A stretch of DNA of 64,000 nt from a bacterium (GCA_002686365.1 NZBZ01000001.1:58405-122404), one strand, 5' to 3'. Shown: positions 9,533-61,539, numbered from the stretch's first letter. The notes: generated from the sequence alone by a model not told the origin. A program made the numbers and translations.

Positions 9533-10042
9533 TCAGTCTGGACAGCGAAGATCGTCTGCGCGATGTGTTTCTGCGACTTCGTCGAGCATTCCGTCGCATT
9601 CTTTCTGTATCCTGCGCGCGGCGCAGCATGCACCTGCTTGCCAGTTTAGAAGCTCGTTGTCGCTTGGCCGTTTTCGACGTACCAGTATGTGTTTGCGGGC
9701 GTTTTGGGCCCATTCCGGCGCGTTTTCCTTCGCGTATCGTTCTGTCCGGCACCATCTTCCCCAATCACTGAGTGATCCATTGGAGAAGACTGCGACATTC
9801 CACATTCGGTCCGTTGGCCCCTCGATGTCGGAGAGTAATTGTACAGCGCGTCCTCTGTTTTCCAGCTCACGGACGAAGTCGACTGCCGCGCGATCCTCTT
9901 CTCGAGCTACGAAGACGACTGGCACGTTTTCGCGCTTACGCTGGTCTGGGGGGTTGGATCTGTATGCAGGGAATTCTTCGCACGGCCAGTCTGGATCGGG
10001 TATGTCTTCGTGGTCGGGATTGTGTTCTGCGGTGGTGTTCAC
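9533..10042 (-). CDS. hypothetical protein, possible TIR/flavodoxin-like fold
   Basis: The stretch VVFVAREEDRAAVDFVRELENRGRAVQLL fits a beta-alpha-beta start like TIR-like domains, which is only suggestive. It lies in a GC-rich island. Confidence 0.25.
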   Translation of the reverse strand: MNTTAEHNPDHEDIPDPDWPCEEFPAYRSNPPDQRKRENVPVVFVAREEDRAAVDFVRELENRGRAVQLLSDIEGPTDRMWNVAVFSNGSLSDWGRWCRTERYAKENAPEWAQNARKHILVRRKRPSDNELLNWQAGACCAARRIQKECDGMLDEVAETHRADDLRCPD

Positions 10043-10074
10043 ACACGGATTCCTTTGTTGGGAGGGGTTGGGGC

Positions 10075-10320
10075 TCAGGAGGCGAAGACGACGTCTTGAG
10101 TTACATAGAAGTCGGTGATGGGATCGAGTGCTGGTTTGCTGACCTTTTTCGGCCTAGGCGGTCTGGCCTCTGGCAGGCCCATTTCACGCCTTAGGGCATG
10201 CCAGCGTTCCCTGAGGCCACGCCTCTTTTTGGGGTCGAGTCCCATCCTCTCAAGCTGTTTTGTGATCCACGCGAGTTCTTCCTTGGGCGTTATCTTGCGC
10301 TCGGCTCCTGTATTAGTCAC
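10075..10320 (-). CDS. small basic hypothetical protein
   Basis: 81-aa Arg/Lys-rich ORF in a GC-rich island. Support is weak. Confidence 0.2.
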   Translation of the reverse strand: MTNTGAERKITPKEELAWITKQLERMGLDPKKRRGLRERWHALRREMGLPEARPPRPKKVSKPALDPITDFYVTQDVVFAS

Positions 10321-10722
10321 TCTCTTCCTCCTGTTCTGGTGACAGACATTTCTTGGTATCTGAACCGCTCGTCTTGTCGCGAGGAAGGTCGGAATGTCTT
10401 TCGCCCTGTGCTCGGGAGAATTGGCAGTGTTCTCCGTTTGGGTTTTGTAAAGAGCGTTGGTTTCTGTCTACGTTCGGCACTTTGTCACGTTGACCAGGTG
10501 CCAAGTTAAACAAAAACGCCTCCCGATTGGGAGGTCTGCAGCATTATTTATTATGTTTAAGCTATATATGCAAAACTCCCAACCGTTTGAAGGTCTTCTT
10601 TTCTATCTTGATGACAATAAGACAGAGAGTTTTTTGCATTTGTTTTATTTTAATATTTTTTGTTTTTTTGTCAATTTTCTGCCTGTGGATAAGAGTTAGG
10701 GACAAGGTTTTTGTGTGTGTGC

Positions 10723-10772
10723 ATTTATGTACACTCTTAATGCGACCGCATCATGAGTGTACATATGTAATT
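10723..10772. repeat. TGTACAC palindromic repeat, copy A
   Basis: ATTTATGTACACTC-ttaatgcgaccgcatcat-GAGTGTACATATG. Confidence 0.5.
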
Positions 10773-10773
10773 T

Positions 10774-10805
10774 AAAAAAAGCACGCCTTTGCGGGGGCGT
10801 GCGTG
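10774..10805 (-). terminator. intrinsic terminator
   Basis: GCACGCC-loop-GGCGTGC stem, followed by a T7 run on the minus strand. Confidence 0.65.
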
Positions 10806-10834
10806 TGATGTAGCCTCTTTTGTGCTGCTTGGTT

Positions 10835-11035
10835 TTATCGCTGCCTTTCTAGCCTTCTCCTTTCTTTAGGCATTAGAGTGCTTTCTAGCTTTCTTAGTCG
10901 ATCTCTTCGCTTTGCGATTTCGTGCTGAGACATGTTCTCGCGTATCTGGGGGGTTTCCAGCTTACGGCGAAGAGATTCTGCTTCGACTTCGTAATTGTCG
11001 AGGCGGCGTTGAGTTAGGTCTAAGTGGGTTTCCAC
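10835..11035 (-). CDS. small coiled-coil hypothetical protein
   Basis: 66 aa, charged and helical. A clean intrinsic terminator follows immediately on the minus strand at 10774-10805. Confidence 0.3.
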   Translation of the reverse strand: METHLDLTQRRLDNYEVEAESLRRKLETPQIRENMSQHEIAKRRDRLRKLESTLMPKERRRLERQR

Positions 11036-11362
11036 AGCGATGTTCCCTGTTATTGTGTCGCATTTCGAGTCAGGAATGCGACTGGTTGAGAATGTGCGAA
11101 ATGACTGCTTTTGACCCGAACGCTGATCATTGTCTTGAGCAGTGTTCGAATTAAAAACGCCCCTTGCTGGGGGTTTTGAGTTCTTGTGTTATTTATTTAG
11201 ATGCTCAAAATCTCCAGCAGAAGGGTTGTGATGGTGCCGGCATTGCTGGAACAACTAGTGTGATGAGAGTTTTTAATTTCATTGTTAATCTTATTTTAGC
11301 CTTATCTTTTTTCTTGTCAATTATGACATGTGGATAGAGTTGAATTATAATGGTGGTGACTT

Positions 11363-14300
11363 ATGACTTCAAAATTTGTCCATCTTCATACCCATAGTCA
11401 CTATTCCCTTTTAGATGGGCTTTCTAAGGTTCCAGAACTTGTGGCGCAGGCAAAGGAGCTTGGCATGGATGCAGTAGCTTTAACTGATCATGGAAATTTA
11501 TATGGAGCAGTTGAGTTTTATAAAGCAGCAAAAGAGGCGGGAATAAAACCTATCTTTGGGTGTGAGTTGTATCTTACTCCCGGAAGTAGGCATGATAAGC
11601 GAGCAAAGATTGATGATACTCGCTATCACTTGCCCTTGCTTGTAAAGAATGAGACTGGCTGGAAGAACTTACTTCAGCTTGTGACTAGGGCACACTTGGA
11701 AGGATTCTATTATAAGCCGCGGGTGGATAAGGAGCTTTTGGAAAAGCATCACGAGGGTTTAGTTTGTCTTGGCGGATGTCTTTCTGGTGAGGTGTCAAAG
11801 CTCATTGAGCTTGGAAGAGAGGCAGAGGCAGAGGAGGCGCTTAAGTTTTATCAATCTCTTTTTGGAGAGGATTATTACTTTGAGATTCAGCCGCATAATG
11901 AAAAGGAAATAAATGAGAAGCTTATTGCGTTTGCGAACAAGCATTCACTTCAAATTGTTGCTACTTGTGATGCTCATTATATACATAAGGATGATAAGGC
12001 TGCGCATGAGATTCTTTTAGCAGTACAGACTGGCACGAAGGTAGATGATGAGAAGCGACTTACTTTGGAGGACATGGATCTTCATTTGAAGTCAGGAGAT
12101 GAGGTTGCCGCAGAGTTTCCTCAAATGCCTGAGGCATTAGAGAATACTGTGAAAGTTGCGGACAAGTGTAATTTTGAACTTGAGCTTGATAAGGTGCTTC
12201 TTCCCAAATTTCCTATTCCAGAGCAAGGAATGGATGCAATGGGATATTTGTGGAAGCTTGTGGAGGAACGGGTGCCGGAGAGATTTTCTGAAGTTTCTGA
12301 TGAAGTTCAAGAGCGGCTCAAGATGGAATTGGACGTTATTTCAAAAACCGGGTATGAGGATTACTTCTTGATTGTTCAGGATTTTATTCGGTGGGCAAAG
12401 CTTCATGGCATTGTTGTGGGGCCGGGCAGAGGATCTGCTGCAGGAAGTATGGTTTCTTATGTGTTAGGTATTACAAATATCGATCCTTTGAAGTACGACT
12501 TGCTTTTTGAACGATTTTTGAATCCAGAGCGTATTCAGATGCCTGATATTGATATTGATTTTACTGATGTACGAAGAGATGAGGTAATTTCCTATGTGCG
12601 GGAGAAGTATGGTAGTGACGCAGTTGCTCAAATTATTACGTTTGGAACTATGGCTGCTCGGGCTGCTGTTCGAGATACTACCCGGGCCCTTGGAATTTCG
12701 TATGACGTTGGAGACAGGATTGCTAAGCTCATCCCCTTTAATGCGGGACTTGAGGATGCATTTCAGGATGTTCCTGAATTGAAGCAGATGTATGAACGTG
12801 ATGAAGAGGTAAAGAAGGTTATTGATCAGGCAAAGCGTTTGGAAGGCACTGTGCGTCATGCGTCTGTTCATGCATGCGGAATTGTGATTGCGCCGGAGCC
12901 ATTGGTTAATATGCTGCCTCTGCAGTACGCGCCCCAAGGCGATAAGACAGTTCTTACGCAGTTTGAGATGCATGGCGTTGAGGACATGGGCTTGCTTAAG
13001 ATGGACTTTTTGGGGCTCAAGAACTTGACCATTATTGAGCGTACCCTTCGACTTATTAAGGAGCTGCGTGGAGAGGAAATAAATATGGATACATTGCCGC
13101 TTGACGACAAGAAGACGTTTGAGCTTTTTCGATCTGGGGATACGACTGGGGTATTTCAGCTTGAGTCGTCAGGCATGAGGCGGTATTTGAAGGAGCTAAA
13201 GCCTACGGAGCTTGAGGACATTATTGCAATGATAGCTTTATATCGGCCGGGGCCCATGGAACTTATTCCATCTTATATTCGGCGTAAGCATGGGAAGGAG
13301 GAGGTTACTTATTTGCATCCGAAGCTTGAGCCGATTTTGGGCAATACGTATGGCATTGGTATTTATCAGGAGCAGATGATGAGAATTGCGCGTGATTTGG
13401 CAGGATATAGTTTGGGCGAGGGTGATGTTCTTCGGAAAGCAATTGGAAAGAAAATTAAGTCGCTTTTGGATGAACAGCAGGAAAAGATTGTAAAGCAGAT
13501 GATTGAAAATGGAATTGACGAAAAGACAGCAAATGAGATTTGGGAGCTCTTTCCCCCATTTGCTCGGTATGGATTTAACCGGAGTCATAGTGCGGCCTAC
13601 GCTATGATTAGTTTTCAGACCGCGTATTTGAAGGCTAACTACCCTGTAGAGTTTGCAACTAGTCTGCTTAATGTATCTGGAAGTGATGTGGAGCGGATTA
13701 CGTTTTTGGTTTCTGAGGTGCGGCGGCTTGGGATTGAGGTTTTGGCTCCGGATGTGAATCAGAGTTTTGAAGACTTTGCAGTGGATTCTTCAGGCGAAAA
13801 GCCGGCTATTCGGTTTGGGCTTTTTAAGGTGAAGAATTTGGGCGTGAATATTGTGAATGAGATTATTGAGAATCGTCGGCGAGGCGGGCCGTATAAGGAC
13901 TTGGGAGATTTTTTGGCGCGGGTTCAGCATAGAGATATGAATAAGAAGTCTTTGGATAGTTTGATTAAATGCGGGGCATTAAGTTCATTTAATATTCGGC
14001 GGAGTCAGCTTATTGGAAATTTGGATGAGTTCCTAAGGTTTAATCAGGCAGCAAAGAAACTTTCTTCCAGTAATCAGAATGGACTTTTTGGAAATAGTAT
14101 TCCCTCTACTTCTTTGAAGCTTAAAGAAGTTGAGGACTATGGAACTATTAAGATTTTGGCTTGGGAAAAGGAGCTTTTGGGTCTGTATCTTACTGATCAT
14201 CCATTTCGTCCTTATTTGAAGCATGAGAAGGTGAAGAAGCTTGCTATGTCTATACAAGATGTGCGTGAAGTGCCTTTGAGACGGGGCAGGTCTGATAGAA

Positions 14301-18364: not shown

Positions 18365-19795
18365 TTACGAGAGCTCCTTTTTTAGAATTTTTTGAATACG
18401 TTGAGGATTACCCTGGCCCTTGAGCTCTTTCATTGTTTGGCCGATTAGGAATTTTAGTGTGTTCTCATTACCGCCTTTGTAGTCTTTTACTGCCTGCTCA
18501 TTCTCCCCTATTACTTTTTGTATGACTTTTAGAATTGCATCTTCGTCAGAAACCTGCTCTATTCCTTCCTTATCCATTATTGCTCTTGGGTCTTCACCGG
18601 TTTCAGCCATTTTTGGAAGAATATCTTTTACCATGCGTGAGGAGAGTTCGCCTTTTGAAGCTAGCGCAGCAAGGTCTGCAAAGTTTTCAGGATTTATTTT
18701 TAGATCTTCAAAAGAAATGTTCTTCTCTTTTAGAAGTCCAAAGAGGTCGGATGTGAGATAGTTGTAAATAAGAGAAGAACATTTTTTTGCATCTTCTGTT
18801 TTACATTCTGATACGGCCTGTTCATAGAACTCTGCAGCACGAGGCTCTGCAACAAGCGTATCAGCCTGCTTTTCGTTTAGCCCATACTCTGATTTGAAGC
18901 GGTCTCGTTTTGCCTGTGGAAGTTCTGGAAGCTCTCGAAAGAGAAGCTCTGTGTCAATGTAGTTTGGGTCAGTGAGATCGAGCTCTGGAAGATCTGGCTC
19001 TGGGAAGTAGCGGTAGTCATGCGCCTCCTCTTTGCTTCTTTGTGATACTGTTTTTTGTTTTTTTTCGTCCCATCCGCGAGTTTCCTGAACTATTTTATCT
19101 CCTCTTCCCAAAAGTTTTTCCTGTCTTTTGATTTCATCATTTATTGCATCTCCTACGATTTTGAAAGAGTTGAGGTTTTTAATCTCTACTTTTGTTCCTA
19201 ATGTTTTTTTATCCTTGCTAATGGAGATGTTTGCTTCTACGCGCATCTCTCCCTTTTCCATGTCTGCATTTGAGACTCTTAGATATCGGAGGGTGAGCTG
19301 AAGTTCTTTTGCAAATTCCATGGCCTGTTTTCCATTTTTGATGTCCGGCTCTGTTACGAGCTCCATTAAGGGTACGCCTGCGCGGTTTAAGTCAACATTG
19401 CTTGATTTTTTATCTTTGGCGTGAAGAAGTTTACCGGTGTCCTCTTCGAGATGGACTCGGGTGATGCGGACATCTTTTAACATTCCGCCTTCAACTAGCG
19501 GGCTTTTGTATTGAGAAATTTGGTATCCCTTTGGCAAATCAGGGTAAAAATAGCTTTTTCTATCAAAATGAGAAAGGTCAGCAATTTTTCCATTTAAGGC
19601 AAGGCCGAGTTTTATTGTTGCCTCCACGGCCTCTTTGTTTATTGTTGGTAGGGTGCCGGGGTGGGCAAGGCAGATTGGGCAAACATTTGCGTTTGGTTTT
19701 GCTTTAAAAGGATCGTTTGCACAGCCGCAAAACATCTTTGTTTTTGTTTTTGGCTCGATATGGATTTCGAGTCCGATTGTTGGAATATAGGCCAT
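18365..19795 (-). CDS. gatB: Asp/Glu-tRNA(Asn/Gln) amidotransferase subunit B
   Basis: N-terminus PTIGLEIHIE...FCGC; the whole 476 aa is GatB-like. Confidence 0.9.
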   Translation of the reverse strand: MAYIPTIGLEIHIEPKTKTKMFCGCANDPFKAKPNANVCPICLAHPGTLPTINKEAVEATIKLGLALNGKIADLSHFDRKSYFYPDLPKGYQISQYKSPLVEGGMLKDVRITRVHLEEDTGKLLHAKDKKSSNVDLNRAGVPLMELVTEPDIKNGKQAMEFAKELQLTLRYLRVSNADMEKGEMRVEANISISKDKKTLGTKVEIKNLNSFKIVGDAINDEIKRQEKLLGRGDKIVQETRGWDEKKQKTVSQRSKEEAHDYRYFPEPDLPELDLTDPNYIDTELLFRELPELPQAKRDRFKSEYGLNEKQADTLVAEPRAAEFYEQAVSECKTEDAKKCSSLIYNYLTSDLFGLLKEKNISFEDLKINPENFADLAALASKGELSSRMVKDILPKMAETGEDPRAIMDKEGIEQVSDEDAILKVIQKVIGENEQAVKDYKGGNENTLKFLIGQTMKELKGQGNPQRIQKILKKELS

Positions 19796-19846
19796 AAGAC
19801 TTAGGACATAAGATATAGGATTATGATATACGAATTATGAATCCTT

Positions 19847-26822: not shown

Positions 26823-26828
26823 TAGTAG

Positions 26829-26913
26829 TGCGCGGGAGAGGACTTGAACCTCCACGTCCCTAGGGGACAATAGCCCCTCAAGCTATAGCGTCTACCAATT
26901 CCGCCACCCGCGC
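26829..26913 (-). tRNA. tRNA-Leu (anticodon GAG)
   Basis: Cloverleaf has acceptor GCGCGGG/CCCGCGC, a D-arm GGCGGAATTGGTAGACGC typical of tRNA-Leu, anticodon loop TTGAGGG, a long variable arm and a T-arm GGTTCAAGTCC. Confidence 0.85.
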
Positions 26914-27576
26914 ATTATTTTCTTTGTCTATTTTAAGTATTCTTTGGGTTTTAGCAACTTTTCTTAAGAGACAAGGAATTTTTTCTTTATAATATATTCT
27001 TTTTATAAGTTTTTTGCTTTCAGTTTTTGCAAACTCTAACATCCATGCTCTCGTTGCGACTTTTACACCTCCCTTAATGGAGCTTTGTTTTTCTATCTTT
27101 TTTTGTAGCCACTTTAGAAATTCTGGGCTCGCTGATATGAATCTGATGTAAAACATATAACTGCTTCTCCACCTTTTGTCCCAGTACGAGTATATGCACC
27201 CATCTCCGTCAAAACACCCTCGTAAAAAATCGAAAAAATAATTATCAGGTATTTTTAGCTCTCCCAGTGTTTTCGATTTATTCGGAGTCATTCCGATGCT
27301 TACGAGCCAGCTATAGAATAATACGTTACTTATTTGGGTGCGGTGGTAGATATTTTTATTGTTATGACTACTTATTTTTCTGCTAATTTTTAGCCCTTCT
27401 ATTCCTAGACATTTTTGGAATGTTTTTATTAGCTCTTTGTCTTTTGAGGTAAAATCGATGTGACGCTTGTCTTTTGAAAGACAGCCATCGGTTGCTATGA
27501 GTCCAACTGCATATGCAAGTTCTGCTGACCAGTTAGTAGAAATTTTTTTCTTGGGCTTGGGTCCCCTTTTCCCCAT
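26878..27576 (-). CDS. LAGLIDADG homing endonuclease (free-standing, double-motif)
   Basis: Two LAGLIDADG motifs: LAYAVGLIATDGCL and FLRGCFDGDGCI. The last 12 codons overlap the 5' half of tRNA-Leu. Confidence 0.8.
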   Translation of the reverse strand: MGKRGPKPKKKISTNWSAELAYAVGLIATDGCLSKDKRHIDFTSKDKELIKTFQKCLGIEGLKISRKISSHNNKNIYHRTQISNVLFYSWLVSIGMTPNKSKTLGELKIPDNYFFDFLRGCFDGDGCIYSYWDKRWRSSYMFYIRFISASPEFLKWLQKKIEKQSSIKGGVKVATRAWMLEFAKTESKKLIKRIYYKEKIPCLLRKVAKTQRILKIDKENNARVAELVDAIA

Positions 27577-29324: not shown

Positions 29325-29416
29325 GCTAGGATATAAGACTTAGGACATAGGATTTAGAAAAAAGAAAATGCGCCGCAGGGATTGCCTGAGGCGCTTTTGG
29401 TTGCGGTCTGAGTTCA

Positions 29417-31564: not shown

Positions 31565-31641
31565 GGGCCTGTAGCTCAGTTGGCTAGAGCGCCTCGTTTG
31601 CAACGAGGAGGTCGTCGGTTCGATTCCGATCAGGTCCACCA
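31565..31641 (+). tRNA. tRNA-Ala (anticodon TGC), CCA encoded
   Basis: Acceptor GGGCCTG with a G3-U70 pair, the Ala identity element. Anticodon loop TTTGCAA, T-arm GTCGGTTCGATTCCGAT, then ACCA. Confidence 0.85.
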
Positions 31642-31687: not shown

Positions 31688-31836
31688 GGTTTTGATGGAA
31701 TCGAAGAAGAAAGGGGTCGGGAAAACATCTGTTTTACCGTGGCGGAAAAGCCCCGCCAAGGCGGGGCGGATTAAAACCGAGGGGTTTTAACGAGCGAATG
31801 AAATGAGCGACGTGAGATTCCATCAGGTCCACAAAA
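31688..31836 (+). ncRNA. candidate structured small RNA (unknown family; strand uncertain)
   Basis: A closing helix GATGGAATC...GATTCCATC encloses at least three local hairpins: AAAACA-TC-TGTTTT, CCCCGCC-AA-GGCGGGG and TTAAAACC-GAGG-GGTTTTAA. It is flanked by terminators at 31644-31679 and 31839-31866. Confidence 0.3.
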
Positions 31837-32686: not shown

Positions 32687-33592
32687 ATGAGTGAAACTAT
32701 TGAATCTATACTGCTTGAGGACGAAAAGTTTCCTTTTCTACTGAAGGAAATTCCAGATCCTCCAAAGCGTTTGTACTACAAGGGCAGTCTTCCCTTTGAT
32801 GCGCCTGGGGTTGGGATTGTTGGGACGCGGAAAGTTTCTCCTCAGGGTCGTGCGCTTGCGCGAAGTGTTGCGGAAGAATTATCCCGAGGGGGATTTTTTA
32901 TTATGAGCGGACTTGCTCTTGGAGTTGATGGAGCAGCTCATGAGGGAGCTCTTTTAGGAGGCTGCGGTACGCTTGCGATTTTAGCTAATGGATTAAATTC
33001 TGTATATCCCAGACAGCATGAAGGACTGGCTCGTAAAATTCTTGATAAAGGAGGGGCGCTTGTTTCTGAATATGATTTGGACTCCCCTCCTTATCCAAAC
33101 CAGTTTTTGGAGAGAAACCGAATTATTAGCGGACTTTCTATTGCCACAGTATTTATTGAGGTGCCGATTCGGTCTGGAGCGCTTGTTACTGCGCGTCATG
33201 CCTTGTCGCAGGGGCGGGAGGTCTTGGTCTTTCCCGGGCCGTATCAGGATAAAAATTTTGAAGGTTCGCACATGCTTTTGCGGAATGGAGCGCGAATTGT
33301 AACGAGCGCAAAAGAAATTCTGGAGGATGTGACTTCCCTCTTATCAAACTATCCCAAATTGAATTATAAGGGCGGTACTTCTTCTAACACTGCCCTCTCT
33401 TTGGATGAGTTGAAAGACGAGAATCAGAGAAAGGTGTATACTGTGCTTTGTAAATCTCAAAAACCGCTTACAGTTGACAATATTTTAAAGATAACTAAAC
33501 TTGAACCTCAAATTGCTAATCAGACATTAACTTTTCTTCTCTTGTCAGGGTTTATTGAGGAGAGCGAAGGCACATTTAATGCCAAGAGCTAA
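32687..33592 (+). CDS. dprA: DNA processing protein DprA
   Basis: GIVGTRKVSPQGRALA...GLALGVDGAAH, a Rossmann-like DprA core, plus a C-terminal wHTH-like tail. Confidence 0.85.
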   Translation: MSETIESILLEDEKFPFLLKEIPDPPKRLYYKGSLPFDAPGVGIVGTRKVSPQGRALARSVAEELSRGGFFIMSGLALGVDGAAHEGALLGGCGTLAILANGLNSVYPRQHEGLARKILDKGGALVSEYDLDSPPYPNQFLERNRIISGLSIATVFIEVPIRSGALVTARHALSQGREVLVFPGPYQDKNFEGSHMLLRNGARIVTSAKEILEDVTSLLSNYPKLNYKGGTSSNTALSLDELKDENQRKVYTVLCKSQKPLTVDNILKITKLEPQIANQTLTFLLLSGFIEESEGTFNAKS

Positions 33593-35630
33593 AACAACAA
33601 CAAAGAAAAAAGCGTCCGCAAAGACGCTTGTTATTGTTGAGTCCCCTACAAAGGCAAAGACTATTGGGAAGTTTTTGGGGAGCAAATACGCGGTAGAGTC
33701 ATCATATGGCCATATTAGAGATCTGCCTAAGTCAAAGCTTGGAATTGATGTTGAGGAGGGTACGTATGAGCCGCAGTATGTGATTCCTACTAAGGTGCGG
33801 AAGAAGGTTACTGCCCTGAAGAAGGTGGCAAAGAATATGGAGACTGTGATTCTTGCCACTGATGAAGACCGAGAGGGAGAGGCCATTGCTTGGCACTTAG
33901 TTCATGCTCTTGAGTTAGATGCAGATGGAGCTCCAGAGACAAAGAGAATAGTATTTCATGAAATTACCAAGGGGGCGATTGCAGAAGCAATTGAAAACCC
34001 GCGAGAGATTGATGCGCGTCTTGTTGATGCTCAGCAGGCACGGAGAGTTCTTGACCGCTTGGTTGGGTATAAGCTTTCTCCTTTTTTGTGGAAGAAAATG
34101 TTTCGTGGGCTTTCTGCTGGCCGTGTACAGTCTGTTGCCTTGCGGCTCATTGTGGATCGAGAGGATGAACGAAATGCATTTAAGCCTCAAGAGTATTGGA
34201 GCATTAACGCCTTGCTTCAAAAGCAGGGTGATGGCGATGCATTTCTTACTTCTCTTTATAAAATTGGTGATACCCGAGTTGGGAAGCTGGATATAAATAC
34301 AAAGAAATCCTCTGAAAAAATTAAGAAAGACTTGGGAAAAGCATCTTATTCTGTTCTTTCAGTTAAAAAGACACAGAGAAGACGGAATCCTCTTCCTCCA
34401 TTTACAACAAGTACTTTACAACAGGAGGCATCAAAACGGCTTGGAATGAGCGCGCGGCAGACTATGCAGATTGCCCAAGGCCTGTACGAAAAGGGACATA
34501 TAACATACATGAGAACTGATTCTGTGAACTTGTCGCAGGAGTCTTTAGTTTCTGCGCGAGAATGGATTATCTCTTCATTTGGCGGAGAGTATGTTTTAGA
34601 GGCTCCACGAGTTTTTCGCGGAAAGTCTCGACTTGCTCAAGAAGCGCATGAGGCGATTCGCCCTACTACTCCTACCTTTGCTCCAAAAGAATTTGGCGGA
34701 GAGCTAGGAAAGTTAGATTCACGGACAGTAAAGCTTTACGGACTTATCTGGAGACGGTTTATTGCCTCGCAGCTGCCTCCTGCTGTCTTTGACGCAACAA
34801 GCATTGAAGTGTCTGCGTCTGGGACAGATTCATACATACTTCGGGCAAATGGAACTATTTTGCGTTTTGATGGATTTTTGAAAGTTTGGGAGTCAAAGAT
34901 TTCTGAAAATGAACTGCCGGAACTTTCAAAAGATGATAGCTTGGAACTTCAAAAAATTGAGACAGAACAGCATTTTACTGAGCCACCTCCTAGATACAAT
35001 GAAGCGAGCTTGGTAAAGACGCTTGAGGAGAATGGAATTGGACGGCCATCAACATATGCTCCGACTATTTCCGTGATTCAGGGACGTAATTATATTGAAA
35101 AGGATGAGAGTCGAAGATTTTGCCCTACTGAAGTTGGAACGCTTGTGAGTAATCTTTTGAAAGAGCATTTCCCAAAGATTGTGGATACTGGATTTACTGC
35201 AGAGATGGAGGAGGATTTGGATGAAATTGCAGAAGGAAAACGAGAGTGGCATGAACTTATTAAAGTTTTCTATGTTCCATTTGAAAAGCAGCTGGAGCAG
35301 AAGTATGAGGAGGTGAAGAAGATAACTAAAGATATGGAGGAGGAGACTGATGAGAAGTGTGAGAAGTGTGAGAAGCCTATGGTTATAAAGATGGGGCGGT
35401 TTGGAAAGTTTTTGGCCTGTTCAGGTTTTCCTGACTGCAAGAATGCGAAGAAGCTTGTAACAGAGGAAAATTCTTTTGGTGATTGCCTTGATTGTGAGGA
35501 GGGCAAGGTTATTTCATGCAGGACCAAGAATAGACGCTTGTTTTACGGCTGCTCTAAATACCCTGATTGTAAGTATGCAACGTGGAAAAAGCCTGGGAGC
35601 GAAAAGGATGAGGACGAGGACTCAGAATAA
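33555..35630 (+). CDS. topA: DNA topoisomerase I
   Basis: TOPRIM LVIVESPTKAKTI...GHIRDL, a Topo IA core, and C-terminal Cys4 zinc ribbons. Paired with dprA. Confidence 0.95.
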   Translation: MRRAKAHLMPRAKTTTKKKASAKTLVIVESPTKAKTIGKFLGSKYAVESSYGHIRDLPKSKLGIDVEEGTYEPQYVIPTKVRKKVTALKKVAKNMETVILATDEDREGEAIAWHLVHALELDADGAPETKRIVFHEITKGAIAEAIENPREIDARLVDAQQARRVLDRLVGYKLSPFLWKKMFRGLSAGRVQSVALRLIVDREDERNAFKPQEYWSINALLQKQGDGDAFLTSLYKIGDTRVGKLDINTKKSSEKIKKDLGKASYSVLSVKKTQRRRNPLPPFTTSTLQQEASKRLGMSARQTMQIAQGLYEKGHITYMRTDSVNLSQESLVSAREWIISSFGGEYVLEAPRVFRGKSRLAQEAHEAIRPTTPTFAPKEFGGELGKLDSRTVKLYGLIWRRFIASQLPPAVFDATSIEVSASGTDSYILRANGTILRFDGFLKVWESKISENELPELSKDDSLELQKIETEQHFTEPPPRYNEASLVKTLEENGIGRPSTYAPTISVIQGRNYIEKDESRRFCPTEVGTLVSNLLKEHFPKIVDTGFTAEMEEDLDEIAEGKREWHELIKVFYVPFEKQLEQKYEEVKKITKDMEEETDEKCEKCEKPMVIKMGRFGKFLACSGFPDCKNAKKLVTEENSFGDCLDCEEGKVISCRTKNRRLFYGCSKYPDCKYATWKKPGSEKDEDEDSE

Positions 35631-35683
35631 ATCAGTCTAAGTTTTTGAGGTTCGGTTTCAAAAAATATTATTTGAATAATGTG

Positions 35684-35733
35684 TATTTATGTACACTTCA
35701 CTGACGATCGTCACCTAAGTGTACATATAATTA
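35684..35733. repeat. TGTACAC palindromic repeat, copy B
   Basis: ATTTATGTACACTT-cactgacgatcgtcacct-AAGTGTACATATAATT. The inner spacer is itself palindromic (TGACGATCGTCA). Confidence 0.5.
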
Positions 35734-36117
35734 ATGATCTTGGCCTCTCTTTTTTGCTTATTGACGAGCTTTAAGGATTTGGTAGGATGGAGTTAGTAAG
35801 ATGCGATCATGGTCTCTTTTTCGTTTCCTCCTAGGGGCTGTGGCTTGTCTGGCGAGAAGTCTGTGGGGTCTTTTTCGTCAGGCTTGTTGTCTTAATATAT
35901 CTCTCCTTAAGATCTTCTAGGTAGCTAAGGCTGCCAAAGAGAAGGCCTGATGGAACACAGTCTGTCTCCATAATACTACTAGTCCTGAGCTCTATAGGAG
36001 CGACGAAGGATGATTGAGTATTTTCCTATCAGGTCTTTTGCAATCCATATATGCGACTCGAGAGGCGTTTTTCATACAGGCGCCTCGTTTTTTTATCAAA
36101 ATTTCCAGTTTCAATAT

Positions 36118-36150
36118 ATCGAAATATCGAGATATCGAGGTCATATTTTG
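36118..36150. repeat. tandem ATATCGAN octamers (x3), left side of island 6
   Basis: ATATCGAA ATATCGAG ATATCGAG. Confidence 0.45.
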
Positions 36151-37034
36151 ATATGTAGGCTTATGATTGTCCACAGGCATGGTTGGTTATTTGCCTGAGT
36201 TTGCTATGCTTATTTTCAGTGGCGCTTAAGGATTGCCTTGAGTTGCCCTAGTCTTTCTTCTAATTGCGGTCGTCTTTGCAGAAAGAGCCGTAAAGAAGAA
36301 CGAGCCTTGGCTCGAACAGCTATGCCTAGGGACACAGAGTCTTACCTGGGATAGTGTGTTAGACACGGACAATCAGGATAGGCTGGTTTCCAGGAAGGGC
36401 GTCCTTCCTGCACTCTGTTCATAAGGAGTACGGACATGCCGCGCGGAATGTGTTTCAAGACGTGGCGATTCTTGCGTATGTCCGACGCGGGCTGCGCGAC
36501 GGACGTGATCCCCGATCAGCGGGCAGCGCTCACGACGACGGCGATGGTGCGTCAGCGCATGGCCACCGACGAAGCGCTCTTCACGCAGGCAGCTTGGGGG
36601 CTCAGGTAGCCGGTCTCTCATCGGGTCCTACCCTCGTCTACGTGAATGCGCGTAGCACTTCTGTACCACAGTTGTGAACTTCTTTGCTCGCCCACGACAA
36701 GTGAACGCTAAGGCCTGACTGTGGGTTTGCCGCATAGAGCAAGAAGATTGCCTATACAACGGCCGCACGAGACTGAGTAAGTTTGTCCTGAGATAAGGAC
36801 TACGAAATATAGGGAGCCTCTTTGTGTACAGGGCTCCCCTCTTTTTTTATAATGCCTGGAAGGGCGTTTTTTGTTGATAATGTGTCAAGCGCTTAATGCG
36901 TTAAGTGCTTGATCTTCATGAAATTATCTTCGTTTCACTCAGTATTTCATGGAATGTAACACTTTTTGGTTTTTTACGTTATTTCTTGACTGATTTGCAT
37001 ATTTTTTCCTTTTTTATGTATTTGTATATATGTA

Positions 37035-37078
37035 ATTTATGTACACTCTCGATGCGACCGCATCAGGAGTGTACATAG
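37035..37078. repeat. TGTACAC palindromic repeat, copy C
   Basis: ATTTATGTACACTC-tcgatgcgaccgcatcag-GAGTGTACATAGG. It shares the inner ATGCGACCGCATCA with copy A. Confidence 0.5.
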
Positions 37079-37911
37079 GTTGCAATCTTAATATATTTAT
37101 ATATTTTGATATATTTTGGCACTAATTAGGGTTTTCCACAGAAAATTTGTGTTCTTTGTTTTTTTTGTATATGCTTGTACTCGGCGCTGTGTAGCACGTT
37201 TGCCACAAGGCTGTAAAAAGCCTGTGACAGCGCGTGTTATCCGGAATAACATGGTTGACAGAGAAGGTGCTTCTCGGAGCAGTCTTCTTTCGTCGAATAA
37301 GGAGAACGCATAACCTATGCGTGGCTGCGTCTCCTGAACGTAACGATCCCGTGAGTAAGCCCGTGCTTTGCCTTTTGTGCCAGTGGACTCAATAGGTGGT
37401 GACTACTACCTAAAGTCCTAATCAGAGTTGATAGGGGCACAGCATAAAGAGAAAAGCGCTATCGGGCATAAAACCGGGATGGGAAAGCTCGTAAGACTTC
37501 CCGAAACGGGGAACAACATCGCTATTCGCGTGTGGGGGCCGGAACCTAGTTCTTGCCCTCACAAAACGCTTTATATAAACACTTTAGGTGTTTTTTTGTT
37601 TTTTAGGCGTTAAATGCGTCAATGTGTCAAATTTTAGTGTTATTACTTTTGGACGACCGTAAAAGTGATGACATTAAAATGGAAAGATAAGAAAAAATCA
37701 TGAATTACAATTTTGTGGTGGTTATCCACACGTTCTTGAGATTTTGAGTGAGTATTGTATGGTTTTTACAGGTTCCAGCCATAGGTTCTCCCACCAAGGA
37801 GTTCCCTAATGGTGAGGGAACGTTCAAGCTAGGGAGGATTTTCGAGACTGGATTCACTTGTCTCGTTTCGAGACCAAGAGAGCTCTCAGCTCCTGAATAG
37901 GAGTTCTGGAC

Positions 37912-38895
37912 ATGACTTTCCAAACAGACCGTCCTCCGACGCAGACGTTTGACCATCGCCGCAAGTTCCGCAAGTTCCGCCGAGTGGCACCCTTCCTCGT
38001 CGCGATCGCAGCCGCAGTAGCGCTCGGCGTCCCGATGATGACGACGGACGCGTTGACCGACAGTCAACAGGCGACGGTAGCCCTGACCGCGGACCAAATC
38101 GGTGCGACGCTCAACGACGTGGCGACCCCGCGCGACACCGCGCAGATGTGCGTTTTCGCCGCGGGGACCGATGCGACTGACGCGAGCCCGGCCATAGTGC
38201 AAACGCTGACGGCCGAGCAGACTCGCCGAACCATGGACCTTGATGCGGTTGCCGACGCGACGCGCGGATCGCCCGAGACCGGCTCTTCGACGATGACCGT
38301 AGCCATGGTCACGCGGAGTACCTTCCCCGAGATGACGGATGGTGCACCCGCCGCTGTGGGCACGGTCGCTCTCGTTGACGAATCGGCCTCAGCTGAAACC
38401 ACCACTTCGGCATTCGTCGTGGAAATCGCGCAGTGTGCTGCCGGAATTGTCGAATCGACGACGGCGCGCGCAGAATCAACCCAGGAGATCACCGTTCAGG
38501 GCGTCTACTCAGAGCAGCACGGCATCGTCACGATGACCACGCAAATCGCCGTCCAGCCCGCTGAGCAGGCCGAGGTCGTCGAGACGTCAGCCGAAGTCGT
38601 TGGTACCATCGTCGCGATGACCATGGAGACCGCCGGTCAGAGCGCCGAACGTCAAGTCGAGATCGCGGCTATCACCGCTCAACATGGCATCGAGCAGATG
38701 GCGGCCGCGGAGTTCCCGGGACAGTACTGTGGTGAAGCAATCGCGATGGCGGCAGACAGCGGCCAGTGCGATGTACAGCGGATCGAGGCGGACGCGTTCT
38801 CACGGCACCCCCAAGTGGCGCTCGCAGTCACGCAGCACCGAAGCGCGGCGGTTGCGACGATGGCGGCGTCGGTCGACGCTCATCCGCGGGCCTGA
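37912..38895 (+). CDS. hypothetical Ala/Thr/Glu-rich secreted or membrane-anchored protein (GC-rich island 6)
   Basis: A basic N-terminus then a hydrophobic segment (FLVAIAAAVALGV). The rest is low-complexity and acidic. GC is about 62%. Confidence 0.35.
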   Translation: MTFQTDRPPTQTFDHRRKFRKFRRVAPFLVAIAAAVALGVPMMTTDALTDSQQATVALTADQIGATLNDVATPRDTAQMCVFAAGTDATDASPAIVQTLTAEQTRRTMDLDAVADATRGSPETGSSTMTVAMVTRSTFPEMTDGAPAAVGTVALVDESASAETTTSAFVVEIAQCAAGIVESTTARAESTQEITVQGVYSEQHGIVTMTTQIAVQPAEQAEVVETSAEVVGTIVAMTMETAGQSAERQVEIAAITAQHGIEQMAAAEFPGQYCGEAIAMAADSGQCDVQRIEADAFSRHPQVALAVTQHRSAAVATMAASVDAHPRA

Positions 38896-39021
38896 TCCTC
38901 GAGAGACCAGGCAGGATCCTCCACATTGGCTCTTCGGAGTCATCACACCAAGGTCTTCCTACAGACCACACGAGGCGACTACATGTTGCCTCTCTTTTTT
39001 TATATGCGCGCAAGCGCTTTT

Positions 39022-39052
39022 TTATTTCGAGATATCGAGATTTCGATATTTT
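39022..39052. repeat. tandem TCGAGATN octamers (x3), right side of island 6
   Basis: TTCGAGATATCGAGATTTCGATAT, the same motif family as at 36118. Confidence 0.45.
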
Positions 39053-39057
39053 GAACT

Positions 39058-39825
39058 TTACCAAGGTGTAAGGTCTAGAGGACCTCGTTCAGTTATAGCA
39101 ATAGTTTTTTCAAAATGTGCAGTAAGAGAGTTATCTTTTACTACAAAGCTTCCATCTTCTTTTGCAAACACTTGTCCAGAGCCCATTGCTACCATTGGCT
39201 CAATTGCAATTACCATTCCTGATACGAGCTCCTCACCACTCCCCTTTTCTCCATTGTTTCGTACAGTAGGGGGTTCGTGCACATCAAATCCCACTCCGTG
39301 TCCTGTGAGTTTTTCTACAATTTCAAATCCCTGCTTTTTTACAGTAGTTTCTATAATATTGCCTATATCACCTGTGTAGTTACCTTGCTTGCATACCTTA
39401 ATAGCCCTTTTTAAGGCCTCATTTGTGGTTTTTAAGAGCTTTTTTGCCTCTTTCGATGTCTTTCCCACCCCTACAGTAATGGCTGCGTCTGTGAAGCGAT
39501 TTTTGTATTTTACTCCAATATCAATCTTCAAAATATCCCCATCTTTTAATTCCACATCATATGGAATGCCGTGGACTACAGTTTCATTTACTGATGCGCA
39601 GATTGCAGCTGGATACGGCGCTGAAGTCGGCTTTGGCTTATAGCCTAAAAACGCAGGCTCTGCTCCCTGCGCTTCAATTGTTTTCTTTGCGATTTTCTCA
39701 AGGTCAAGGAGTGAGACTCCTGGACGCACATGTTTTTTTACCTCCTTTAGAGTGCGGACTAGAATTTTTCCAGAGGCTTTTAAGAGCTGAATATCATCTT
39801 TTGATTTTAGGCCTGTTTCATTCAT
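39058..39825 (-). CDS. map: methionine aminopeptidase type I
   Basis: Pita-bread fold motifs: VVHGIP...DIG...HGVGFDVHEPP. Confidence 0.9.
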   Translation of the reverse strand: MNETGLKSKDDIQLLKASGKILVRTLKEVKKHVRPGVSLLDLEKIAKKTIEAQGAEPAFLGYKPKPTSAPYPAAICASVNETVVHGIPYDVELKDGDILKIDIGVKYKNRFTDAAITVGVGKTSKEAKKLLKTTNEALKRAIKVCKQGNYTGDIGNIIETTVKKQGFEIVEKLTGHGVGFDVHEPPTVRNNGEKGSGEELVSGMVIAIEPMVAMGSGQVFAKEDGSFVVKDNSLTAHFEKTIAITERGPLDLTPW

Positions 39826-40507
39826 TGAGCTTTAGGGCTTTTATGATAAGCTGAAAGACCTCGGGGGGCCTTGGACTGCCGTCGACTTCGAGAACATTAT
39901 ATCCCTCGTCTTTTAACTGGCTAATCATTGGAAATGTCCGCTCATTATATTCCCTAATTCGTTCTTTAATAACTTTTGGAGTATCTAATGCTCCCCGTTT
40001 TCTTGGTTTTCCTCCTAATTCTTTGCATCTTTCCATGTCTTTTTTTGTAAGAATTGGAAAACCGTCAACTGAACAGACAACACGCTTTGAATTTCTTTCT
40101 AAAGTTGTTTTTTCATCAATATTAATCCTTACAAAATATACATTCTCTTTTCCGTATAAATCTGCCATTGTTTTGGCAAGTCCTGTCTCTTTTTCATCTC
40201 CAAATGTTTCATAAAGTGTGCGTGGAGATCCGCTAAGTACCAGCCCCTTATTCTGTTTGGCGATTTTTTCTACCTGTTCTCTGGCCTGCCCTAATATCCA
40301 GGAAGGCGTTGTCAGCATTCCTGTTTCAAAGTTTGTCTGCTCGCGTTTTAGGATCGGGTCTTTTTCCGCCTCTTTAGAATGAAGAAGTTTTTCTAAATAT
40401 TTTCCTGTATCAAAATGGATGAGATCAAAATGTTTCGCGAGAAGTTCTGCCTGCGTTCCCTTTCCGGCTCCTGGAGCAGAAATTGTAAGAGAAATTGCTA
40501 TATGCAT
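39818..40507 (-). CDS. adk: adenylate kinase
   Basis: P-loop SAPGAGKGTQAELLAKHF, in secY-adk-map order. Confidence 0.85.
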   Translation of the reverse strand: MHIAISLTISAPGAGKGTQAELLAKHFDLIHFDTGKYLEKLLHSKEAEKDPILKREQTNFETGMLTTPSWILGQAREQVEKIAKQNKGLVLSGSPRTLYETFGDEKETGLAKTMADLYGKENVYFVRINIDEKTTLERNSKRVVCSVDGFPILTKKDMERCKELGGKPRKRGALDTPKVIKERIREYNERTFPMISQLKDEGYNVLEVDGSPRPPEVFQLIIKALKLNE

Positions 40508-40518
40508 TACTTATGTAT

Positions 40519-41787
40519 TTATACATTCTCGTACTCCCTCATATCGAGCTGAGATTCGAGCTGCTTCATGATTTCTATTGCTACTGCCACGATGATGAGG
40601 AGGGCGGTTCCTCCGAGTGTTAAAGTTGTAATGCCTGTTATTCCCTGAGTTATATTTGGAAGAACTGCTATGATTCCTAAGAATAATGCTCCGAACAATG
40701 TGATTCTATAGACCACTCTTGATATAAATTCTTTTGTATTGTCTCCGGGGCGTATGCCTGGAATAAATCCGCCGTTTCTCTGCAGATTTTTTGATATTTC
40801 TCCCGGGTCAAATGTGATAGCAGTATAGAAGAAGGTGAATGCTACTACTAGGATAAAGTAAAGGATGCTGAATATAAGAAGATTGCCCGCTACTCCCTGC
40901 ACAAATCCGTTTACTTGCGCTGCAAGGTCTGGAGAGATGATGGCAAGAGTTTGCGCAAGAAATTGCGGGAAAAGAAGCACAGAGAGAGCAAAGATGATTG
41001 GTATTACTCCTGCCTGGTTTACCCGCAGGGGAAGATAGGTTGCTACTCCGCCATACATCTTGTTTCCCCTTACATGCTTTGCGTATGATACGGGAATTTT
41101 TCTTTCTCCTTCAGTTATAAATACAACTCCTGCAATTACGATAATGCTGAGTACTGCGAAGGCAATATATGTTGGCAGAACGCCTGGGTTGTAGTTTAAA
41201 AGGTTTGAATAGATGATTTGCGGAAGTCCGCTTACGATTCCCGCAAAGATGATGAGAGAAATACCATTTCCTATTTTGTATTCGGAGATAAGTTCTCCTA
41301 TCCACATAACAAGAATACTGCCCGCAGTAATTACCACTACATTTGCAAGAATTGCCGGGAAGGTCATCCTTGCTATTGCGCCTTGGGAAACCAGAAGATT
41401 TAGAAATCCATATGCCTGAAGCATTGCGAGCGGAACCGTGAGATACCTTGAGTATCTGTTGAACTTTGCCTTACCTTCAGCTCCCTCTTCGTGGTATGCC
41501 TTTTTGAGCTTTGGAAAGATAATAGTAAGAAGCTGCATGATAATGCTTGAGGTGATATATGGCCCTACTCCAAGCATGACGATTGAAAGGCCGGAAAGCC
41601 CTCCTCCTGTGAAGACGTTTAAAAAGCCAAAGAGCTGGTTTGATTCGAAAAATGCCTGAAGCTGGACTGTATCTATTCCCGGGATTGGGACTGCTGCGAG
41701 AACTCTAAACGCGACAAGAAGAAGCCCTACTGCGAATATCTTTTTTCGAAGGTCTGGGATTTTAAATACTTGAAGGAATTTGTTCAT
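40519..41787 (-). CDS. secY: preprotein translocase subunit SecY
   Basis: 10-TM SecY architecture, following rplO. Confidence 0.9.
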   Translation of the reverse strand: MNKFLQVFKIPDLRKKIFAVGLLLVAFRVLAAVPIPGIDTVQLQAFFESNQLFGFLNVFTGGGLSGLSIVMLGVGPYITSSIIMQLLTIIFPKLKKAYHEEGAEGKAKFNRYSRYLTVPLAMLQAYGFLNLLVSQGAIARMTFPAILANVVVITAGSILVMWIGELISEYKIGNGISLIIFAGIVSGLPQIIYSNLLNYNPGVLPTYIAFAVLSIIVIAGVVFITEGERKIPVSYAKHVRGNKMYGGVATYLPLRVNQAGVIPIIFALSVLLFPQFLAQTLAIISPDLAAQVNGFVQGVAGNLLIFSILYFILVVAFTFFYTAITFDPGEISKNLQRNGGFIPGIRPGDNTKEFISRVVYRITLFGALFLGIIAVLPNITQGITGITTLTLGGTALLIIVAVAIEIMKQLESQLDMREYENV

Positions 41788-43286: not shown

Positions 43287-43331
43287 GGTTTAAGATATAG
43301 GACTTAGGATATAGGATTTAGAAAGCTGCAT

Positions 43332-60661: not shown

Positions 60662-61342
60662 TTATATCATTCCTGTGATTTGAGGTTTTTCCGGAATAAT
60701 TTCAATGTCTTCCTGCGGTTTTGCTTTTATTGTGTGAAGAACTTTGCCTAATACCTTAAAGTCTTTTTTCATAATAATCTGCTTGTATGAACCAATAGAG
60801 GTTACAGGGTCTAGAATGACTGCATCTTTTGTAAATGATATTTTCTTGATTACTGCCATGCCGTCTATGACTGCTGCGATAATATCTCCTTCTTCTACCT
60901 CGTCCATAAGTTCTACGAGTACGAGATCGCCATCCTCAATGCCTGCGTCCTGCATGGATAGGCCCAGAGCTCGAATGACAATGACTTCGTTTTGTTTTTG
61001 CTCACCCAGAATACTTTGGGCTATTTGAACAAATTCATTAAAGGACTCTTCTGCATAAACATTTAGACTTCCGCAGGCCGCAGCTCCCACGACTGGCAGT
61101 GTTATGGTTTCACCATGAATATCATTTGTTGGATCAAGAAGCTTGATATTACGGCTCTTTCCTTTGATACGCGCTATAAAGCCTTTTTTCTCAAGCGTTT
61201 CAAGATACTGAGTGATTGTTCTTGTTGAGGAGACTCCTAGCTCCTTTTTTAATTCAAAAATGGTAGGGGACTGGCTTGTTTTTGAAATATAAGTTTCGAT
61301 TGTTTTCAAAACTTCAGCCTGTTTTTTTGTTAATGTATTCAT
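60662..61342 (-). CDS. lexA: LexA repressor
   Basis: N-terminal wHTH and a C-terminal S24 peptidase with Ser (GLSM) and Lys. Confidence 0.85.
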   Translation of the reverse strand: MNTLTKKQAEVLKTIETYISKTSQSPTIFELKKELGVSSTRTITQYLETLEKKGFIARIKGKSRNIKLLDPTNDIHGETITLPVVGAAACGSLNVYAEESFNEFVQIAQSILGEQKQNEVIVIRALGLSMQDAGIEDGDLVLVELMDEVEEGDIIAAVIDGMAVIKKISFTKDAVILDPVTSIGSYKQIIMKKDFKVLGKVLHTIKAKPQEDIEIIPEKPQITGMI

Positions 61343-61539
61343 ACGTTAAGACTTAGGATATAAGACATATGATTTAGAATGTTCGACTTTTTCATTTGTG
61401 TATGTTGTGTATCTCTATTATACACAAATTTGAGAATACGTGCTCCCTTCCCTGTGGACAACTTTTTGGGGGCGATGATGCGTTATTTGTTATCAAAAAC
61501 GACCCCTAATAAAGACGGGGTCGTTTTTGATTAGAGTTT

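Follow-up and report, generated by a model that had tools for sequence, protein, structure and literature searches.

A probable islet of horizontally acquired, terminator-closed units between topA and the ribosomal-protein operon of a marine CPR/Patescibacteria-like bacterium

What fills the ~3.4 kb over which topA and the ribosomal-protein (rp) operon face each other in the bacterial contig NZBZ01000001.1 (assembly GCA_002686365.1)? We analyzed one strand of positions 58405-122404 of this contig, a stretch of 64,000 nucleotides that is called the window here and from whose first letter all positions are counted. The gap in question, 35631-39057, is the entire convergent intergenic zone between topA (plus strand) and map (minus strand). 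Reading of the sequence, combined with a promoter and terminator scan, hairpin folds and a structure map, resolves it into four plus-strand units, U0 to U3, each ending in an intrinsic terminator. Most likely these small, terminator-insulated units represent a horizontally acquired islet that is real but fairly ordinary, and we favor, with some confidence, their acquisition by horizontal transfer in successive steps, into a neutral convergent gap rich in terminators, in a genome of the Candidate Phyla Radiation (CPR).

The case for acquisition starts from composition. Two GC-rich cores are seen, at 36300-36750 (60% GC) and 37900-38950 (61–67%), in a genome of ~40%; an intermediate block at 37200-37550 has ~49% GC, and the AT-rich spacers between the cores have 27–39%. 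A first-pass annotation, made by a model from the sequence, had described 35640-39057 as a GC-rich island; the two cores bear this out and are compositionally foreign, but the 3.4-kb region as a whole is not uniformly GC-rich. Each core holds an open reading frame (ORF), of 57 and 327 amino acids (ORF57 and ORF327), with a GC content at third codon positions (GC3) of 0.83 and 0.74, respectively, against 0.30–0.41 in map, adk, secY, topA and dprA. GC periodicity by codon phase is present across both ORFs, and in ORF327 (65% GC, GC1/2/3 = 0.67/0.53/0.74) the phase pattern is constant along the length. In sliding windows the bodies of both give RNA structure z-scores of ~0, as expected for coding sequence, and their high GC is therefore not an effect of structural RNA. 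Their translation signals deviate as well: the initiation region AGGAGT-N3-GGACATG is common to the two, whereas a canonical AGGAG near the start codon is absent from most native genes, many rp genes having GCTATAAGCTAA-type or CCTATATCCTAAGTCTTA-type leaders instead. The GC-rich cores carry foreign codon composition and foreign-style ribosome-binding sites, and judged as a genomic island would be, by deviating composition and codon usage, they stand apart in GC (60–67% versus ~40%), in GC3 (0.74–0.83 versus 0.30–0.41) and in the style of the ribosome-binding site.

Abrupt composition shifts and orphan content are also what an assembly chimera would give, with contaminating GC-rich reads joined onto a CPR contig. 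Positions 35001-39900 recur, however, at 99.96–100% identity (0–3 mismatches) across five independent Tara Oceans assemblies made from different samples and with different assemblers; because these agree, the junctions are real and the chimera is disposed of. The shifts, moreover, fall at promoters and terminators, not at arbitrary points, and an assembly artifact is essentially excluded. Exact protein matches were found in several Tara Oceans assemblies, including the 132,894-bp scaffold TARA_SAMEA2619974_METAG-scaffold_59. The nearest Map homologues come from metagenome-assembled genomes of CPR/Patescibacteria, at 54–57% identity (GTDB species set, JGI metagenomes), and on these sequence grounds the host is a marine, ultra-small, uncultured CPR/Patescibacteria-like bacterium. 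Its genome is compact, with ~40% GC (ORF listing and Pfam annotation). On the minus strand the S10-spc rp operon runs from tuf/fusA (51.9–55.4 kb) through secY (40519-41787) and adk (39818-40507) to map (39058-39825; Pfam Peptidase_M24, E = 2.5e-45), its last gene and the right boundary of the gap. Converging on this operon from the plus strand are dprA (32687-33592; ORF listing and Pfam annotation) and the left boundary gene, topA (33555-35630; Pfam Toprim, Topoisom_bac and Zn_ribbon_Top1, E = 7e-127), so that 35631-39057 is the whole gap between two converging genes.

That the rp/secY-adk-map cluster stops at map had been noticed before and is indeed present in the sequence, with the cluster on the minus strand; its abrupt end had also been taken as an anomaly or an assembly fault. 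Escherichia coli InfA, RpmJ, RpsM and RpsK were used as tblastn queries, and as a positive control these recovered map-infA-rpmJ-rpsM-rpsK as directly contiguous genes in six non-CPR loci (L014, L015, L057, L058, L059 and L084). None of the four genes was found by tblastn anywhere in the 64-kb window, nor in any retrieved CPR locus up to 10 kb downstream of map. Since the CPR loci sampled also lack infA-rpmJ-rpsM-rpsK after map, a cluster stopping at map is the norm here and no evidence of insertion or mis-assembly, and the suspicion of a fault falls away all the more as the five assemblies share the junction. The result documents that the spc cluster normally stops at map in this CPR lineage. 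Synteny past map is not conserved, the flanks of the relatives being without topA and dprA.

The largest ORF of the gap lies in U3. Upstream of it, the promoter-like element TACAATTTTGTGGTGGT (37706-37730, plus strand) matches the region upstream of tRNA-Ile in 16 of 17 nt, a weak match (E = 2.8) from which a promoter function is predicted, and overlaps a perfect TTATCCACA at 37722-37730. ORF327 itself (37912-38895, plus strand) has an AGGAG ribosome-binding site, a basic N-terminus and one hydrophobic helix, predicted as a single transmembrane helix at about residues 22–48. With 19% Ala, 13% Thr and 10% Val it is rich in these three residues and looks membrane-anchored or secreted, as had been proposed for an A/T/E-rich protein of secreted type. 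The chance of an open 327-codon frame at such composition is estimated at ~2e-4 per frame, and we regard ORF327 as a putative membrane-anchored, probably exported orphan protein. It matches only itself in a set of 5.8e9 proteins (word-indexed) and in 1.84e9 representatives (exhaustive HMMER). For neither ORF327 nor ORF57 was a homologue outside their own population found in these two sets, in Pfam (E ≤ 5), PHROGs, NCBIfam, PADLOC or PDB sequences. A single-sequence AlphaFold2 model of ORF327 has a pLDDT of 40 and is unusable. U3 closes with the double terminator T3 (38972-39023, plus strand), which consists of GAGGCGA/TTGCCTC with a T-run followed by GCGC-GCAA-GCGC with a T-run (−13.9 kcal/mol, z = −6.5).

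The other GC-rich core belongs to U1 (~36150-36874, plus strand) and reaches 66% GC within 36220-36800. The leader at 36250-36400 is structured (z = −3.6). Downstream of it lies ORF57 (36436-36609, plus strand), with an AAGGAG ribosome-binding site 8 nt upstream; from these sequence features and its GC3 we consider it a credible small gene, predicted as it is. The first-pass annotation had seen no credible ORF in 35640-37900, which holds for ORFs of at least 100 amino acids but not for this one. ORF57 matches no Pfam, PHROG, NCBIfam or PADLOC entry, its only database match being a 98%-identical copy from its own population. An alternative genetic code in U1 was considered and rejected, as the GC3-periodic frame is broken by three TAG, one TGA and two TAA codons and no single reassignment opens it. 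The U1 core was also recovered alone, as a 577-nt contig from another sample (L091, equal to window 36218-36794) that differs from the window in the terminal 1–3 bases at both ends and in one internal single-nucleotide polymorphism; it might represent U1 in a second context, or simply low coverage. U1 ends in the double terminator T1 (36812-36874, plus strand), in which GGGAGCC/GGCTCCC and a T-run precede GCCTGGAAGGGC and a T-run. Its first hairpin, with T-run, at 36812-36849 (−15 kcal/mol) is the clean plus-strand terminator that had been placed at about 36815-36850. Behind T1 follows a 28-bp palindrome, TCAAGCGCTTAA-TGCG-TTAAGTGCTTGA (36885-36912; fold z = −4.3).

The two remaining units are of lower GC. 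U0 starts at a promoter-like TTGACG-16-TAGGAT (35761-35788, plus strand), a consensus-scan hit with a presumptive promoter function; its body (35789-36061, plus strand) is native-like, with ~43% GC and little excess structure, and it ends in terminator T0 (36062-36096, plus strand), GAGGCG...CGCCTC followed by T7 (−12.7 kcal/mol). From its layout U0 could be a small transcript. Six-frame translation also gives a speculative hydrophobic ORF of 39 amino acids within it (35801-35920, plus strand), with GGAG ahead. U2 (whole unit ~37170-37605, plus strand) has an ORF-less body of ~400 nt and 49% GC at 37170-37576, which folds better than its shuffles (z = −4.6), with plus-strand windows (z = −2.3 to −3.6) stronger than those of the minus strand. 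Here an AAGGAG site is followed by an ORF of only six codons, and the 12-mer ATAAGGAGnACG at 37297 recurs at 36421 and 36793; these two features make U2 equally a candidate for a decayed cassette. It may thus be a structured noncoding RNA or a decayed cassette, and could, with low probability, stand for a new structured RNA class. The unit ends in T2 (37577-37605, plus strand), a weak terminator-like hairpin with a long T-run (−5.7 kcal/mol, z = −1.5). Measured as GC-rich stem-loops that carry a T-run and beat their shuffles, T0, T1 and T3 (−12.7, −15.0 and −13.9 kcal/mol, z down to −6.5) are terminators, with T2 the weak one, and a plus-strand transcript that ends at a clean terminator, as had been suggested, is plausible from all three. 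The proposed Rfam/Infernal scan of 35640-37900 recovered no RNA family: with Rfam 15 the only matches in the window at gathering score were tRNAs outside the region, and at E ≤ 10 only noise of the miRNA/snoRNA type was added. Comparison by eye of U0 and U2 with the signatures of RNase P, SRP, 6S and tmRNA, supplemented with ARAGORN, gave no match. A type III toxin–antitoxin or retron-like layout was rejected, there being neither 36-nt tandem RNA repeats nor a reverse transcriptase.

The units are framed by two kinds of repeat. Tandem octamers had been reported on both flanks, and they are real: the left array (36116-36139; (ATATCGAR) x3, Tandem Repeats Finder period 8, 3.0 copies) reads ATATCGAA-ATATCGAG-ATATCGAG and is followed by ATATTTTGA, and the right array (39024-39055; period 8, 3.5 copies) reads ATTTCGAG-ATATCGAG-ATTTCGAT-ATTTTGAA and abuts the stop codon of map, so that the two bracket the U1–U3 block. 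A double-octamer pattern has six matches in the window against 0.49 expected, all at the two arrays bar one match with three mismatches. Both arrays are part of a common module of ~65–95 nt, comprising a GAGGCG-stem terminator, T7AT, ~18 nt, the array and then ATATTTTGA. The two modules (36087-36153 and 38995-39055) align with z = 8.9 and constitute flanking direct repeats of diverged identity; a comparison of the arrays, as had been advised, therefore yields a shared module but diverged copies. The U3 end resembles that of U0 through the array part (z = 8.9) and that of U1 through the double-terminator part (z = 10), and eight other terminator regions of the window show background similarity to it. 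Diverged direct copies of "terminator + array + ATATTTTGA" flanking the 2.9-kb U1–U3 block are compatible with recombination at the module; from their arrangement the modules may have originated as att sites.

The second kind of repeat is the 36-bp palindrome TGTACAC-N22-GTGTACA, with three copies in the window (at 10728, 35690 and 37040) where none is expected. Hairpin copy B, TATGTACACT...AGTGTACATA, lies at 35688-35727, 58 nt past the topA stop (−17 kcal/mol, z = −5.3). Copy C (37031-37084, with the palindrome itself at 37040-37075; −27.6 kcal/mol, z = −7.9) lies in an AT-rich patch at 36900-37170 with 27–31% GC, in agreement with the first-pass annotation, which had placed it in such a patch. 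Over 43 nt it shares 93% identity with copy A (10723-10765). Together the three hairpins retain 92% of 17 pairs, with four compensatory double changes in the inner stem of copy B relative to A and C. Because the hairpin arm is present only within the three hairpins and never singly, the idea that it might be a dispersed uptake sequence was rejected. Between a hairpin and the promoter-like site that follows it lie anything from 2 to 57 nt. When larger duplicated modules were sought across the window, the hairpin alone was significantly repeated. Its role could be that of a repetitive extragenic palindromic (REP)-like element, a backup terminator or a protein-binding site. A LexA operator was rejected given this variable distance and the different, 8-N7-8 motif upstream of lexA (60662-61342, minus strand). 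That motif, the palindrome TTGTGTAT-N7-ATACACAA at 61405-61427 (minus strand), overlaps a TATAAT box and is by its position a candidate for the LexA operator of the lineage.

The octamers had been called iteron-like and the AT-rich patch compared to an origin with a DNA-unwinding element. Plasmid iterons are typically 17–22 bp long; the units here have 8 bp in three or four copies, and there is no rep gene. Short tandem arrays (period 6–15, at least 2.5 copies) are, furthermore, enriched about tenfold, 34 in the window versus 0–9 in 20 block shuffles, and the 23S rRNA has, within an expansion segment that is GC-clamped, a TCGA-containing array of the octamer type, ATTTCGAC-ATTTCGAT-ATATCGAT-ATTT (L094 19150-19185, ~5 kb left of window position 1). 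Many of the short arrays are located in leaders between genes or code for the Lys/Ala-rich tails that ribosomal proteins carry. In viral contigs the double octamer has six matches, which is chance level, and the hairpin none. Both the octamer arrays and the hairpins of 40 nt belong to repeat classes native to this genome and are not replication elements.

A replication origin at this place, either a chromosomal oriC or an integrated plasmid oriV with the octamers as iterons and the AT-rich patch as DNA-unwinding element, is very improbable. It would account for the tandem repeats, for the low GC of the patch (27–31%) and for four TTATCCACA-like 9-mers in 2.3 kb against ~0.4 expected (scaled from the whole-window expectation, the window having 26 DnaA-box-like 9-mers against 11.4 expected). 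These four boxes (at most one mismatch; 36167, 36872, 37132 and 37722) are, however, spread over 1.6 kb at distances of 260–700 nt, and one is perfect; TTGTCCACA (36167-36175, plus strand) has one mismatch and uncertain significance, and TTTTCCACA (37132-37140, plus strand) has one mismatch. Neither dnaA nor dnaN is among the window ORFs scanned with Pfam, and 17–22-bp iterons with an adjacent rep gene, as an oriV would have, are absent, ORF327 and ORF57 matching no Rep family. Raw cumulative GC skew has a maximum, not a minimum, at ~38.5 kb and tracks gene orientation. Third-codon-position skews were computed per gene and re-expressed on the plus strand: to the left of the region practically every gene then has a positive GC3 skew, whichever its strand (non-rp minus-strand mean ~+0.28), to the right the skew is weakly positive (~+0.07 for non-rp genes), and AT3 skew is negative for every gene in the window except one (M50). 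As neither skew changes sign, the region holds neither origin nor terminus. The resemblance to a bacterial oriC thus extends to an AT-rich patch and some DnaA-box-like 9-mers, with no skew inversion, no dnaA or dnaN and dispersed boxes on the other side. A denser cluster of box-like sites exists at 9.2–11.7 kb, which also speaks against an origin in the gap. In this densest cluster (9175-11730; seven sites, two perfect), three sites share the repeated surrounding sequence GTCAATT-N8-TGTGGATAR, upstream of dnaE and adjoining hairpin copy A. Across the window, plus-strand third codon positions are G/T-rich whatever the gene orientation, and the minus strand carries most genes, among them the rp operon; provided that the leading strand is G/T-rich here, as is usual, this operon would lie on the lagging strand.

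How, then, did the units come to lie in this gap? With stepwise acquisition, DNA of U1–U3 would have come in by transformation, dprA being adjacent, or by transduction. Recombination, either illegitimate or through short homology, would have integrated it at the terminator/tandem-repeat module, of which diverged copies would now flank the 2.9-kb U1–U3 block. Insertions would persist because the gap between convergent genes is selectively neutral; ORF327 would be made and placed in or on the envelope, and the unit terminators would also shield the essential operon against antisense read-through. Several points weigh against this account. Neither an integrase, transposase, relaxase nor tRNA insertion site was found in 35631-39057 (Pfam, PHROG, NCBIfam), and mobility genes are absent in and adjoining the region. 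No donor of U1–U3 was found in the 5.8e9 and 1.84e9 protein sets or by blastn against plasmids (72,556 plasmids, no match to any part of the region), and because of this the term "foreign" comes down to composition and translation signals. Apart from the own population, the best relative in the GTDB and JGI Map scans has 57% identity. The terminators and the AT-rich spacers between the GC-rich cores look native, which fits poorly with foreign fragments simply being inserted and requires several separate insertions or duplication of the module. Expression of every unit is, moreover, deduced from promoter-like sites and terminators, and the excess structure of U2 could mark a functional native RNA rather than acquired DNA.

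A single integrative element, now decayed, is possible though unlikely. The 2.9 kb at 36140-39023 would have entered once and site-specifically, the array modules being attL/attR-type repeats and the recombinase lost or acting in trans. The arrays share unit and orientation, each sits in a similar ~65–95-nt module, their pattern is confined to these two places in the window (bar the match with three mismatches), and another att-like duplication exists at a tRNA-Ala 3' end, with a structural variant there in one assembly. Yet no recombinase was found, short tandem arrays abound genome-wide, and the block is a mosaic, in which native-looking AT-rich spacers and three internal terminators separate cores of unlike GC and a native hairpin copy is 93% identical to one 26 kb away. 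That half of this module is also present at the U1 end speaks, furthermore, for several events and not for a single one. We hold it to be doubtful that nothing in the gap is foreign and that it is a native, lineage-specific accessory locus, with U0–U2 as functional noncoding RNAs that are GC-rich through structure and ORF327 as a fast-evolving CPR surface protein. CPR genomes are rich in orphan surface proteins, the terminators and the tRNA-promoter-like element are of native style, and both U2 (z = −4.6; plus-strand windows −2.3 to −3.6) and the U1 leader (36250-36400, z = −3.6) are structured. What this leaves unaccounted for is the GC3 of 0.74–0.83, at the least constrained codon positions, which neither RNA structure nor amino-acid content can explain; the GC-richest parts are without excess structure, the AGGAG ribosome-binding sites are atypical of native genes, Rfam gives no match, and no homologue in other CPR genomes is found among 5.8e9 proteins. 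Doubtful, too, is an undescribed cassette-accretion site, at which foreign GC-rich segments would be captured serially at a native "double terminator + short tandem/palindromic repeat" module, with the octamer arrays as recombination targets, in an integron-like manner but without a recognizable integrase or attC. If true, such a mechanism could explain many GC-rich orphan islets across the genome.

Such islets are not confined to the gap. At least seven more, with 50–61% GC, are found in the window, at 5.6–8, 8.4–10.4, 14.8–15.4, 17.7–18.2, 25–26.8, 29.2–30.8 and 58.4–59.2 kb. One encodes a complete DAHP synthase, the best non-self matches of which (~70% identity) are non-CPR, from Poribacteria, Thermodesulfobacteriota and Binatia; another holds only a fragment with a LeuA C-terminal domain, and the remaining ones carry orphans of 141–520 amino acids without family matches. 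PADLOC defense models match neither ORF327 or ORF57 nor the orphans of the other islets. In Patescibacteria, genomic islands and horizontal gene transfer account for up to 13% of genome length (PMC12455944). With the islands and islets described there (PMC12455944) our locus shares atypical composition, orphan or accessory genes, a streamlined CPR genome, competence genes nearby and the occurrence of several islets per genome. It differs in being very small (2.9–3.4 kb) and more than half ORF-poor, with no integrase, no tRNA target and no identifiable donor, and in consisting of several terminator-closed mini-units.

Three further systems invite comparison. Like integron cassette arrays, the locus has short cassettes of foreign composition in series and in the same orientation, and imperfectly palindromic junctions that are similar in architecture more than in sequence. 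These junctions are, however, terminators with tandem or palindromic repeats and not attC, each unit apparently has its own promoter and one or two units are noncoding, so that the likeness is a resemblance only. No IntI, attI or Pc was found and no recombinase domain occurs in the window ORFs scanned, a formal attC model search not having been run. Tandem arrays of 7–8 bp are also the operators of ribbon-helix-helix repressors (MetJ met-boxes, omega heptads, ParG boxes), and our arrays are like them in having 8-bp units, three or four in number and arranged head to tail, in which a 4-bp core (TCGA) is conserved and the spacers are AT-rich. In contrast to an operator, the right array lies behind a terminator and faces the map 3' end, and similar arrays lie within 23S rRNA; no cognate regulator was identified, and ORF57 is without a ribbon-helix-helix signature. 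The hairpins, finally, resemble REP palindromes and bacterial interspersed mosaic elements in being imperfect palindromes of 40–48 nt after gene ends or terminators, with conserved outer arms and a compensatory inner stem, but the 64 kb and a further 16 kb of flanking sequence contain only three copies, no REP-associated tyrosine transposase (RAYT) is seen and the arm motif never stands singly.

Some further features of the window deserve mention. The sequence GCTATAAGCT(AA) has 24 copies where 4.2 are expected, and almost all of them are on the coding strand, 3–12 nt upstream of rp start codons, at sites within 5327-56421 (e.g., 45667, 47604, 49822, 53092, 55407 and 56412, minus strand). Its complement, UAGCUUAUAGC, is one arm of a 23S rRNA expansion-segment hairpin (L094 18812-18850). 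The leader may be an initiation signal other than Shine–Dalgarno, or merely a shared slippage repeat. TAGGAYATARG arrays number 12 against 2.8 expected (19788-19819, 29327-29351, 32639, 43291-43315 and 61354); on the coding strand they correspond to CCTATATCCTAAGTCTTA and directly precede the start codons of four genes, namely gatB, L18, lexA and an orphan. Part of the tRNA-Ala 3' end at 31616-31641 (GATTCCGATCAGGTCCAC) recurs 175 nt further downstream (31815-31835), which has an att-like look. Immediately to the left of 31636 the assembly NODE_1114 (start of L046) no longer follows the window and shows another tRNA-like 3' end instead, which points to a structural variant or an integration site. 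An ORF with a LAGLIDADG domain and the 5' part of tRNA-Leu(GAG) overlap by 36 nt (26828-26913 and 26878-27576, minus strand).

Three tempting readings of this locus, as an origin, as an iteron array and as a broken or misassembled ribosomal cluster, are removed by these results. The individual genes have no known function or relatives, and their immediate impact is limited accordingly. What is left is a streamlined ultra-small marine bacterium with 3.4 kb of orphan, mostly foreign-composition DNA beside its most conserved operon, a case for studying how CPR bacteria take up foreign DNA and tame it, for example by terminator framing and by placement in convergent gaps.

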